From: Felis catus
Taxonomy: Eukaryota
Assembly: GCF_018350175.1 (NCBI RefSeq)
Contig: NC_058375.1
Coordinates: 19,530,001 to 19,594,000, forward strand
Reading direction: 5' to 3'
DNA: 64,000 nt
Shown: positions 53,826 through 60,329 of the stretch, piece by piece
Position numbering within the stretch: position 1 is the first letter of the stretch
How the letters are laid out: every line of letters begins with the position of its first letter
Program-made: the position numbers and the translations under genes
The notes under the pieces: generated by a model
What the model was told of the DNA's origin: nothing
Seen by the model: only the letters and a program-made list of their open reading frames with translations
The model's database searches: none

Positions 53826-54126
53826 CTAGTCACCCTTGGGCGCAGCCTTCACCCTCATCTCGGCCAGTTTGTGGGTGAGGAAGCCCCACTTGAAGCCGGC
53901 CACGGTGTCGGCCTCCCCAGGCTCCGGGCGCTCGGCGGCCTCCTCCGCGGGCTCGTCCCCGGCTTCGGGGTCCGGCTCCCGGGTGGGTTCGGCGCCGCGC
54001 AGTATTGACGCCGCGGCCGCCTGCTGCTGCTGCCACCTGCTGGCGAACGTGTCCCAGAATCCGGACCCTCGCGGCTCCGCCTCCGCCGCGGCCACCGCCT
54101 GCGAGGGGGACTTCGCCGCCAGCGGG
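53826..54126 (-). CDS. C1orf232: C1orf232 orthologue, coding exon 4 (..[48 protein letters not shown])
   Basis: Acceptor ccctctcccgcag|C completes a His codon, and the frame is open to TAG at 53826. Matches ORF-track entry 53826..54095. Confidence 0.9.
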
Positions 54127-55576
54127 CTGCGGGAGAGGGACGGGTCAGGGGCCGGCCGAGAGGCGGGAGGAGAGGACGAAGGGGGGAGACGGGGTGCAGA
54201 CGCTAAGAGTGGGGCCGGGGAAGCCAGGGTGAGGTCAGATGACGGGGGGGGGGGGGGGGGGGCGTGCCGGGAGACTGGACGCAGGTCAGGACCTGGAGGC
54301 CAGGGGAGGGTTCAGAGGCACTGGGAAAGGAGGCCGGAGTGGGACAGGGTCAGGGGATTAGGGGAGGGGTCTGAGAAGAGGGGGCCGAGACCAAGATCCC
54401 TGGGGAGAGAGTAGGTGTCGGGGGTTTAGGGAAGGAACTCGGGGAGAGGGGCAAGGCCAGAGAAGGGAAGCCTGAGGCGCCGGGTCCGGGAAGCTGTGGG
54501 AGGGGACCGGAGAGAGTGGCGGGGCCCAGCGGTGCTAGCGGGAGGAGTGAGACCCCCGCGCAGGTCCCCATCCGGGGAAGAGGCGAGGTCAGACTCTTCG
54601 AGAAAGGGTCTTTGAAGCCGGGGTTGCAGCGCTGGGGAAAGAGGCAGGGCGGGGGCGGGGGCAGGGGCAATGTTCTGGGGTGGAGGGAAAGGGGGACTAG
54701 GAAAATGAGGGAACCCTGGAGAGAAGGACAGGTGAGGAGACCCAGAGGAATGAGAAACGCCTAGATCAGAGGCTTAGCCGGGAGGAGGACTGGGGAGGTG
54801 GCATGGAGGGGAAGGGCAGTCAAGGAACGGTGATGAGGCTTGAGGTGGGAGCCTCAGGGCTAAGGAAGGGTCCTTGGAGCTCTGGGAGGGACAAGAGACG
54901 AGCGCCAGGGCACAGAAAGGAAACCCCGGAGCTGGAGAGATGGGTGGGTCAGGGGGACTGGAAGGGAGAAAGGAATAAGAGAATGTCAGAGGAAGGAGGC
55001 AGGACTGGGCTGAAGGGAAGGGCAGGGAGGCAGTGTGTGCCAAAATAGAGCTAGGAGAAAGGAGCTGGCCCGGGTACCATCCCCTAATCCCCAGCAAGAC
55101 AGCGGTCCCTAGACTAGCCTGCCTCAGGTCTTCAGGAGCCTGGCTGCAAATATAGACCCCAGGCCTCATCCTGCATCTGCTGAATCAAGAATCTTTGAAG
55201 GAGGTCTGGCAGAAATTCCCTAGGAGGATGAGGGTATTGGGAACCACTGATCTGGACCACCCTCAGTTCCAAGCGCCTAAAGTTTCTGTCTTCTGTTCCC
55301 TGATTGTAGGGGGATGACCCCTCCCATGTGGATGGGGAAAAAGAGCCCAAAATACCTCCTAGCACCTTAATCCCAACAGCCCTTAAAGTCCTCCTGAGAT
55401 CTAACCTAATCTCCAGATATGATGATTTGGCCTCTTTCCTGCTGAGAGAAACTGAAACAGCCTGTGGCTGCCTCTCCCCCTCCCTCCTTGGTCAGAAAGA
55501 CAAATAGACCAGAAGGAAAGGACGTGGGAGAAGGGAGACCCCAGGCCCATCCCAGCCCCCACCAACACACACGTAC

Positions 55577-55674
55577 TGGTCGGCACAGGGCTCCGGTGGC
55601 AGCAGCTTGTCCTCATCTTCTTTGTTAAACAGAGACGACATTGTCAGCCAACCTTTCACCCCGACCCCCTGAAC
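55577..55674 (-). CDS. C1orf232: C1orf232 orthologue, coding exon 3 ([32 protein letters not shown])
   Basis: Acceptor cctcctag|GTT, donor CCA|GTACGT, 98 nt, phase 0/2. Confidence 0.88.
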
Positions 55675-55784
55675 CTAGGAGGAAGGGGCTGGGAGTCAGG
55701 GAAGGGTCATAGCACCACCTCCCAGGATTCCACAGCAGCCTCCTCCAGACTCCCCAGGGCTGGGGTAAAGAAGGAAGAACTCAC

Positions 55785-55868
55785 CCGGCGGGCCAACTGG
55801 GACATGGGATGGAAAGCCTCTTCGGTAGGTTCTGCCGGCTCAGAGTCCACTAACGCTGGGTTCCCTCT
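55785..55868 (-). CDS. C1orf232: C1orf232 orthologue, coding exon 2 ([28 protein letters not shown])
   Basis: Acceptor tgtcccag|AGA, donor CGG|GTGAGT, 84 nt, phase 0/0. Confidence 0.88.
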
Positions 55869-56376
55869 CTGGGACACAAGACCCCTCCCAGCATGAGAGA
55901 GGTCCCAGAGGAATGGGACTTCCCTCCCCCGCTGCTAGCCTGGTACGCACACCCCGGCACCCCAACCCCCCACAACTAAACACCCATCTGGTCCCCTCAC
56001 GCCTTCCATAAATACATACAAGTGTACCTCTACACAAAGTCACCAGTCACATACCTTACCTGTATAGGAAACCACTGCAGACACCCTCGAGCCCACATAC
56101 CTGCCCACCCATGGACGTATCCACACACACCCAAAAATGTGTGGACAACGGCATGCATGCTGATGTAGACATACACCTGTACATGAGCATGCCTCCACAG
56201 GGCTATGCCTCTTCGCCTGTACATAGCTGTACGTGCTGTGAGGCACCTATACAAGGACACGTACACTGTTATACCATTCACACCTGTGAACTTACAGAAA
56301 TGCAGGCAGCGGCACAGAGGCCCATCTACAGCACACTAAACCTCTCCACCCATCCACAGACACAAAGATGGAGATG

Positions 56377-56412
56377 CACACACACACACACACACACACA
56401 CACACACACACA
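56377..56412. repeat. (CA)18 microsatellite
   Basis: Perfect dinucleotide repeat in a C1orf232 intron. Confidence 0.95.
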
Positions 56413-56988
56413 CCCTATAGAACTAGTTCCTGCCCCTGCCACATCTGTTTGCACGAACTGCTACTTATTACAGCCTCTAGATGTAAGACCGTTCCCGGTG
56501 TCAGAGCCTTTTTGATTTTTTTTAAATGTCAGAATAAACATGCTCCAAGTCTGGCTCTGATCTGATGCTGCAACAGTGACCCTCTAAGGGCAAGCACGAC
56601 TTCTAGGACCATAGGCCTCACTTCCTCTCCAGGCAAGCCATCCCAATTCTGCTTAGCTCTGCCCACTAGGAAGTTGTGTCAAGCTGCATGTGCCCCATGT
56701 GGCTACTGCCTCCTGGTCTCTTCCATGTGGCAGCCCTTGGCTGCCATCTTTGGAGATGGAGTCCGTCGTGGGAGACAATGACCATTTTTCCCGTGGCCCC
56801 CCAATCTTCTTCCTCAGTTTCCTGAAATATCCTGGCTTTCGGCACCAGGCCATTTGTCATCCTTGAAGGTGCCAATTGTTTCTGCACAAATGTGCCTCCC
56901 CTCACAGAGCCTGTCCCTTGCTCTTCATTGTATCTCACTCCTGCTCTCTCTGCCCGTGACCCACCCAGCAAACATGGATGGTACCCAC

Positions 56989-57072
56989 CTCCTCTGCCAG
57001 GTCTTCCTCAGATTCCCCACTGAGGGTCTGTAACACTTTGGACTTGTAGGTTTTCCAGAAGGCCTGGTTCAT
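56989..57072 (-). CDS. C1orf232: C1orf232 orthologue, coding exon 1 ([28 protein letters not shown])
   Basis: ATG at 57072, 28 codons, donor GAG|GTGGGT. Joining 57072-56989, 55868-55785, 55674-55577 and 54126-53826 gives an intact 567-nt, 188-aa ORF. Confidence 0.88.
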
Positions 57073-59015: not shown

Positions 59016-59109
59016 GTATGAAGGAGTAAGGAGAGGACTGGTGGACGGGTGCTGGGCAGACAGGGCTTGCATCTGGTCAGCTCCCAACTCTCTCTCTTCT
59101 TTCAACCAG

Positions 59110-59251
59110 GCTAAAGCAGCTGAGCGTGGAGCCCTACAGTCAGGAGGAGGCCGAAAGGGCAGCGGGTATGGGCTCTTATGTGCCCCCCCAGCGGCTGGCC
59201 GTGCCCACAGAAGTATCCACTGAGGCCCCCGAGATGGACACATCTCCCTGA
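59110..59251 (+). CDS. ZNF593: ZNF593 coding exon 3 ([21 protein letters not shown]...MDTSP*)
   Basis: Acceptor ttcaaccag|G; TGA at 59249-59251. Confidence 0.95.
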
Positions 59252-59385
59252 CATGGCCTGAGGATGTAGGGCAGGGGAACTGCCCATGGACAGTGGTGCA
59301 AGGGCTAGGCTGGCAAAGACTGTGCCAACCTATTTTGGCCCTGGGTTTGGGGAGTGGATGGCCTCTTCTGGGTGCCCTCACCCCC

Positions 59386-59391
59386 AATAAA
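59386..59391 (+). terminator. ZNF593: ZNF593 polyadenylation signal
   Basis: AATAAA about 135 nt after the stop. Confidence 0.8.
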
Positions 59392-59717
59392 GGAACTGGA
59401 TGAAGAGGACTTGTCTCTGACTCTCTAACCTCCAGGCCACTCCTCCAAACTCCTGCCCTGTAGGGGTTTCTCTGTTACTCTTGTTTACAGGGCCGAGGGT
59501 GTCCATTCCCCACTTGGTCCGGCTTTGGAACCTACAGCCTTGCTTTCCCTCAGGGGTCCTGGCATCTGAGCTGGAGCCCCAAGATGGAGCCCAGGTCAGT
59601 GAAGGGGAGAGGGAAGATCAGGGACTGACCCTCAGAAAAGAAGTGGGCTCCCGAGATTGCAGCCCCCCACTGAGTCACCTCCCCCAGGACCCGGGCGTGA
59701 GGCTGCCTACTTTATCA

Positions 59718-59864
59718 TCAGGCCTGTGGCGGCCGCCGCCGCTGCCCCACCATCTTCCAGACAGCATAGCAGGAGCCACCCAGTCCAAGGACAGCCAGCA
59801 GTGTAGCCACTACCCCGGCCAGTGGACTCCGGGGCTCTGCTTTGAGCTCCCCAGCTATCTGCAT
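59718..59864 (-). CDS. ZNF593OS: ZNF593OS microprotein, second coding exon ([48 protein letters not shown])
   Basis: Acceptor acctccag|ATG, in frame with the previous exon. The 63-aa product has one hydrophobic helix and closely matches the recalled human ZNF593OS protein. Confidence 0.85.
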
Positions 59865-60144
59865 CTGGAGGTACACAGAGGGTCCATCTGAGGGGTCAGT
59901 TGAGACTTCTGGGAAGGTGGGGGGGTGGGAAGGAGCTGAGAGGGTACAGCTGGGTGAAGGAGATATGGATGCCATTGCTGCCCCAGGGAGATTCCACCCC
60001 AATCCCTCTCGCTTCACTGCCCATCTGGGCCCTGGCCGCTCAGGCGGCAGGAAACGTGACAGCCTGGATGCTGGGGGTGTTAGCCCAGCTATGGTAGGGG
60101 AAAGAGGGGGTCCGTGGCTGAAGCCGTAGGTTAGAGGTACTTAC

Positions 60145-60189
60145 CTGTAGCACCCGGAAGTAGCCAGGGGTCAGGCGTCGAAATCTCAT
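60145..60189 (-). CDS. ZNF593OS: ZNF593OS microprotein, first coding exon (MRFRRLTPGYFRVLQ)
   Basis: CCCACC ATG context, consensus donor CAG|GTAAGT. The exon acceptor ccccacag|G is at 60219/60218. Confidence 0.85.
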
Positions 60190-60329
60190 GGTGGGTGCCA
60201 CTAGTCTTCCTTGGCGGCCTGTGGGGTGGAAGCAGGAATGAGGATTAGTGGTGTTCATAATACCAAGGAGTGGAAATCAGGGCACAGAGGTGTCTGACCT
60301 CTCATATCCATGGGAGCCATACCTCAGAG

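Follow-up and report, generated by a model that had tools for sequence, protein, structure and literature searches.

A putative read-through isoform joining ZNF593OS to C1orf232 across the opposite-strand gene ZNF593

Can two neighbouring genes of the cat, ZNF593OS and C1orf232, be joined in one spliced RNA that carries both reading frames? The question arises in a stretch of 64,000 nucleotides (nt) of Felis catus DNA (NC_058375.1, 19,530,001-19,594,000), here called the window, whose positions are used throughout. According to the sequence and its translation, both genes are encoded by the minus strand and flank ZNF593, which is on the plus strand; they show the same-strand, same-orientation adjacency asked of read-through and of splicing in cis between neighbouring genes (cis-SAGe). 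The coding sequence of ZNF593OS has two exons (60189-60145 and 59864-59718; 63 residues) and that of C1orf232 has four (57072-56989, 55868-55785, 55674-55577 and 54126-53826; 188 residues). The 63-codon open reading frame (ORF) is contained whole in the cat RefSeq model of ZNF593OS (P0138), and the C1orf232 protein of the window is identical to the cat RefSeq model P0161. A preliminary description had proposed a bicistronic mRNA or, failing that, the remnant of a fused ORF. We slightly favour a different reading, namely two separate conserved genes with a read-through isoform that is one form among several. Read-through in the cat is probable, and a functional output of two proteins is unlikely.

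The evidence that carries this reading comes from bats. A search with C1orf232 exon 4 for longer relatives returned 80 proteins; 15 of the 80 clusters were opened, three of them in part (15 of 24, 15 of 18 and 15 of 16 members). Six NCBI model proteins from four bats of two families have ZNF593OS exon 2 sequence spliced onto C1orf232 exon 1, and in all six this sequence, in a shifted frame, directly precedes the C1orf232 methionine. They belong to Hipposideros larvatus (P0034, P0123, P0122), H. armiger (P0125, P0122), Saccopteryx bilineata (P0128) and Rhynchonycteris naso (P0021). When each model protein was tried against 288 ways of joining donors and acceptors in the window, all six scored best at the two donors that the preliminary description had named: P0034, P0123 and P0125 picked the donor after 59711 (donor 1), and P0122, P0128 and P0021 that after 59679 (donor 2). 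The join 59711-57091 was chosen by three models, 59679-57091 by one and 59679-57074 by two. Best and next scores were 112 and 70 for three proteins and 56 and 42 for one, with a narrow margin for P0122 (89 versus 81) and a modest one for the short P0021 (26 versus 17). Small length differences beside donor 2 leave its place in bats uncertain by a few bases. Isoform gene models of this sort as a rule rest on RNA alignments, and because the two families use different joins, the bat models do not derive from one projected model. All listed Hipposideros isoforms start in ZNF593OS exons (four of four in H. larvatus and two of two in H. armiger).

We then return to the sites in the cat, where the coordinates given earlier proved correct. 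An AG at 57076-57075 lies two bases before the C1orf232 ATG (57072), the ZNF593OS ORF runs into three in-frame stops (59720-59712), one A and a GT donor (59710-59709), and a second GT donor follows the exon end at 59679. A second acceptor, with its exon start at 57091, had been overlooked. The donors follow the first ZNF593OS stop at 7 or 39 nt, the acceptors precede the C1orf232 ATG by 19 or 2 nt, and the four joins have spacers of 9, 26, 41 and 58 nt. The join 59711-57074 is in frame, with 9 nt after the first stop, and 59679-57074 has the 41-nt spacer, both as previously claimed. Crude matrices based on textbook frequencies place acceptor 57074 second of 221 AG sites (5.5, compared with 2.4-6.7 for real acceptors) and acceptor 57091 ranks 52nd; donors 59679 and 59711 rank sixth and 17th of 140 GT sites and are unremarkable by score alone. 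The window permits the splice without proving it, and that it takes place in the cat is what we infer. The proposed joined RNA is supported by six bat models, through both donors and with 59679-57074 in two of them, whereas the join that had been favoured, 59711-57074, was not seen; it would be invisible as a longer protein, since translation in that frame meets a stop ahead of the ATG. Metagenome scans for orthologous DNA gave 43 and 597 pattern matches with none confirmed, and for this reason the splice sites of other species are read from protein frames only.

Several observations weigh against this reading. The bat evidence consists of automated gene models, and those of H. larvatus and R. 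naso may borrow from relatives, which would leave two independent lines. The exon-2 join occurs in six of the 201 C1orf232-like proteins examined, all from bats, and is absent from the carnivore models examined, including the one identical to the window protein. A search with the bat extension matched only itself among 115 candidates, although this search was insensitive and also missed P0128, a non-representative cluster member. Hipposideros has no listed stand-alone isoform, contrary to what a minor isoform would lead one to expect. A frameshifted ruminant-like fragment (P0271) suggests a single stop, with the GT of donor 1 missing and donor 2 covered by a deletion. The upstream exons of Onychomys P0233 and of Molossus P0059, P0154 and P0155 could not be placed above shuffle level and were left uncounted.

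As protein, the bat extensions carry little meaning. An alternative frame across ZNF593OS stayed open in 2759 of 5000 synonymous recodings (55%), and the open shifted frame was therefore rejected as meaningful coding. Because it arises so often, P0034, P0122, P0123, P0125, P0128 and P0021 probably carry false N-terminal extensions. We also rejected a separate small exon as the origin of the emballonurid extension, which is a run-on to donor 2. In three Myotis models and a shrew (P0086, P0143, P0144, P0121) the ZNF593OS frame itself extends into the 59720-59676 region and meets its stop where donor 2 lies, as expected if the GT there is kept. Going by these frames, donor 2 spliced to 57091 would yield in Myotis and the shrew an in-frame, membrane-anchored C1orf232 fusion.

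How could such an RNA arise? We propose that an RNA started at ZNF593OS would run through ZNF593 and be spliced into C1orf232 exon 1, either of the two donors being joined to either of the two acceptors. The polymerase would be expected to read through because ZNF593OS has no nearby terminator: AATAAA and ATTAAA are absent from the minus strand between 59720 and 58119, that is for 1.6 kb below the ZNF593OS stop. The first canonical AATAAA stands at 58119, and a variant GATAAA overlaps the ZNF593OS stops. As had been described, ZNF593 lies whole within the intron of about 2.6 kb, the interval of 2587-2636 nt containing this gene together with its AATAAA at 59386. The splice would thus remove the ZNF593-complementary part and lend ZNF593OS the 3' end of C1orf232.

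The main product of the isoform would be the 63-residue membrane protein. Only low-level re-initiation, once the 63-codon ORF has been read, would give C1orf232 from the joined RNA, and the same re-initiation would spare this RNA from nonsense-mediated decay. Leaky scanning to 57072, the other route suggested earlier, is unlikely because four AUGs precede the stop, two of them in strong context (the first has A at -3, and one of the three that follow is strong). The classic optimum for re-initiation is a first ORF of less than 13-18 codons and a spacer of 80-90 nt; the 63 codons and 9-58 nt found here lie outside it. In the longest join the ZNF593OS stop is 324 nt above the last junction, and the RNA should therefore be sensitive to decay unless the second ORF is read. 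An AUG overlaps the stop (59720-59716); in the 59711-57091 join, as in the emballonurid models, it shares the C1orf232 frame. Stop-start re-initiation of the calicivirus type combines an overlapping stop and start with an upstream 18S-pairing motif that has a UGGGA core, and this core was absent from the 110 nt above the stop. Such a layout is ill suited to re-initiation and leaves the RNA open to decay.

A stronger proposal is that of a dedicated bicistronic gene, in which the main RNA of hair cells, retina and brain would start at the ZNF593OS promoter and give both proteins, the second by re-initiation as in MIURF-MIEF1 or STREMI-SLC35A4. We consider this unlikely. It would explain why six of six listed Hipposideros isoforms are read-through, and three PhyloCSF regions lie where the ZNF593OS exons would be, in a cluster reaching 2.7-3.2 kb upstream of human C1orf232 (supplement of PMC6886504). 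A p53 construct with a 58-codon ORF and a 42-nt spacer, close to the 63 codons and 41 nt of 59679-57074, re-initiated at about 80% and was partly spared decay (excerpt of PMC6614817). The stop-overlapping AUG also speaks for it, but an in-frame AUG is over-represented by construction because only such joins are visible as longer proteins. Spacer length and phase, however, vary from one of the four joins to another and from species to species, which is not the behaviour of a tuned element, and other first exons of C1orf232 exist. A cell-line RNA table in the supplement of PMC13303939 lists ZNF593OS without C1orf232, and ZNF593OS is named in a transcriptome study of heart-attack patients (accessible part of PMC11897311), although such counts may be raised by overlap with ZNF593. 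For C1orf232, the PMC6886504 supplement leaves the 'Bicistronic?' cell blank. A yet more elaborate picture, a hair-cell and retina bicistron spliced across an intact opposite-strand gene, pairing an ancient mitochondrial-type microprotein (possibly a far COX7A relative) with a TDRP-like protein and with a gene fusion in the making in Myotis and the shrew, seems to us a shade less likely still.

The opposite view takes the two genes as independent, the read-through as bat-specific or noise, and the cat sites as chance look-alikes (an AG in Kozak context and ordinary GTs). The ranks of the donors and the weakness of acceptor 57091 in the window agree with it, as do the separate cat RefSeq models P0161 and P0138, the plain 187-residue model of the congener Saccopteryx leptura, and the loss of donors suggested in the ruminant-like fragment and, for donor 1 only, in the shrew. 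We nevertheless regard it as rather unlikely, given that all four splice sites that bats use, two donors and two acceptors, are intact in the window. The plain carnivore models say little here, because two of the joins, with an in-frame stop before the ATG, would be invisible in cat protein models. The remaining idea, that an ancestral fused ORF of a membrane anchor and a TDRP-like domain was broken by stops, is very improbable. It would fit the in-frame join 59711-57074, and P0162 and P0221 have ZNF593OS coding exon 1 linked in frame with C1orf232, but their linkers do not map to the window and we set both aside as probable prediction artefacts. A split ORF should leave a fused protein in outgroups and a conserved phase; none of 112 ZNF593OS-like proteins matches the C1orf232 profile, and ZNF593OS stands alone from shark to mammals. 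When 1.84 billion representatives were searched with a profile, 58 ZNF593OS-like proteins came up; members identified by name are from coelacanth, bamboo shark, teleosts, alligator, finch and turtle. Of the 37 non-mammalian-type homologues, 33 end 59-78 residues from the mammalian start position, and chicken C1orf232 begins at its own methionine (supplement of PMC6886504, in part). Fusions may be hidden within C1orf232 clusters. A special meaning of the triple stop and the in-frame phase is not supported, as stop number and phase vary among species; shifted-frame peptides point to two stops after ZNF593OS in bats and to one in the ruminant-like fragment, where both donors are apparently lost.

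Under our preferred reading of separate genes with a read-through isoform, the bulk of C1orf232 protein is likely to stem from its own, shorter transcripts. In the mouse, RefSeq isoforms 2 and 3 reach exon 2 via other first exons, as do three felid X2 models. The felid models P0168-P0170 have an alternative first coding exon at 56224-56177 (minus strand), within C1orf232 intron 1. A seal model (P0184) fits donor 58097 joined to acceptor 57074, the sole methionine-starting match among 148 GT sites combined with two acceptors, a fit of four residues only (13 versus 12 in the join test). About 340 nt above the C1orf232 ATG align in tblastn to extensions of dog, rodent and mole models (P0018, P0076, P0172, P0206, P0232, P0240); these extensions are unspliced and show upstream conservation only. 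A motif scan of this region found a TATA-like hexamer (TATAAA, 57446) and three E-box-like hexamers, and 57073-57446 on the minus strand, which contains acceptors 57091 and 57074, is a candidate for C1orf232's own promoter. PMC6886504, whose available text gives no peak position, reports strong inner-ear support for the mouse gene by cap analysis of gene expression, as well as expression in brain and eye, and an accessible part of PMC9588199 names chicken C1orf232 as a marker of utricle hair cells.

The kind of isoform proposed here is already known, both from cis-spliced read-through RNAs and from bicistronic mRNAs with a conserved upstream microprotein; this join itself would be a new member of it. 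No description of it was found under ZNF593OS, C1orf232, their aliases or ZNF593 antisense or readthrough, including the accessible part of PMC13270882, in a literature coverage without most subscription papers. With cis-SAGe examples such as GALT-IL11RA, ANKHD1-EIF4EBP3 and INS-IGF2 (PMC6862657, in part) it shares same-strand neighbours, and it would share missed termination and an intergenic region removed as an intron. Unlike these, the join would leave the ZNF593OS coding sequence whole, stop included, and lead into C1orf232's first coding exon just above the ATG, so that both ORFs stay intact, and the removed intron would contain an entire opposite-strand gene. Like the vertebrate bicistronic mRNAs MIURF-MIEF1, PYURF-PIGY, ASDURF-ASNSD1 and STREMI-SLC35A4 (PMC13303939, in part), it would place a conserved ORF of 60-140 codons before a main ORF unrelated to it; the first ORF here, ZNF593OS, has a basic N-terminus and one hydrophobic helix. 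For the MIURF-MIEF1 group, predominance of the two-ORF form and dual translation have been shown, whereas here both are putative and the join varies in phase and spacer. ALDOA and MKKS have ORFs in their 5' untranslated regions (PMC6886504, in part), and as for ALDOA, the downstream gene C1orf232 seems to have starts of its own too.

If real and abundant, the isoform would be a tissue-restricted addition to the short list of vertebrate two-protein mRNAs, would explain a ZNF593OS 3' end without ZNF593 antisense sequence, and would mean that several bat C1orf232 models have false, wrong-frame ZNF593OS extensions. A hair-cell gene could then also be affected by knockouts or promoter variants at ZNF593OS. 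As a minor isoform, it would be ordinary read-through.

The ZNF593OS and C1orf232 proteins are annotated yet unstudied. Both ORFs are conserved as proteins, C1orf232 in placentals, marsupials and, according to the accessible part of PMC6886504, chicken, and ZNF593OS from shark to mammals. Its homologues in shark, coelacanth, teleosts, turtle, alligator and birds (P0260-P0314) make it older than its mammalian label suggests, and it is single copy in G000 at the search sensitivity used. For ZNF593OS we found no Pfam match in 23 members, no PDB sequence match and no fold match at E <= 0.001; its fold model has two helices (predicted local distance difference test 70) and is too simple for a fold search. 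In five homologues the first 16 residues include three to four basic ones and no acidic one, and a hydrophobic stretch starts at residue 32; the protein may reside in the mitochondrial inner membrane. The nearest named Atlas clusters are COX7a (PF02238; 0.79-0.83), which is a lead only, and a PF02238 search of G000 gave no match for it or for the controls and is uninformative. The best Pfam match of C1orf232 is PF15683, the TDRP family (E 3e-5), with 24.3 bits against a cut-off of 27 bits (P0161, P0080). C1orf232, called TDRP-like in the preliminary description, appears by its sequence related to TDRP and is not a member by the cut-off. Compared with the TDRP family, expression of C1orf232 is reported in hair cells, eye and brain.

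Further features complete the locus. A likely upstream non-coding exon of ZNF593OS lies at 60339-60443 (minus strand), with a donor after 60339 (score 4.4); the N-terminal extension of P0264 aligns here and stops at this donor (score 61, shuffle maximum 30). A start codon in frame with the ZNF593OS ORF was sought in this exon and not found, and a human PhyloCSF region stands at about the matching distance. Coding exon 1 (60145-60218, minus strand), placed by family alignment, has its acceptor at 60218, the ATG at 60189 and a donor after 60145. Exon 2 (59711-59864, minus strand) encodes the membrane helix and the three stops and ends at donor 1, and a 32-nt extension (59679-59710, minus strand) reaches donor 2. 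The plus-strand ORF of 134 residues at 58558-59251 (exons 58558-58757, 58953-59015 and 59110-59251) we take to be ZNF593, as the preliminary description had labelled it. In P0268, ZNF593OS exon 2 is followed by sequence antisense to ZNF593 exon 3 (59290-59111, minus strand, compared by eye with the ORF at 59111-59287), which suggests another ZNF593OS 3' exon overlapping ZNF593. On the minus strand at 58097-58119, the AATAAA is accompanied by the alternative donor 58097, which could feed C1orf232 from the ZNF593 promoter side. C1orf232 exon 1 (56989-57091) would start at 57091 or 57074 if entered by splicing; exon 2 (55785-55868), exon 3 (55577-55674) and the coding part of exon 4 (53826-54126) follow on the same strand, with a variant poly(A) hexamer, CATAAA, at 53754. 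Convergent with C1orf232, an ORF of the FAM110 family (Pfam PF14160 and PF14161) occupies 51219-52238 on the plus strand.

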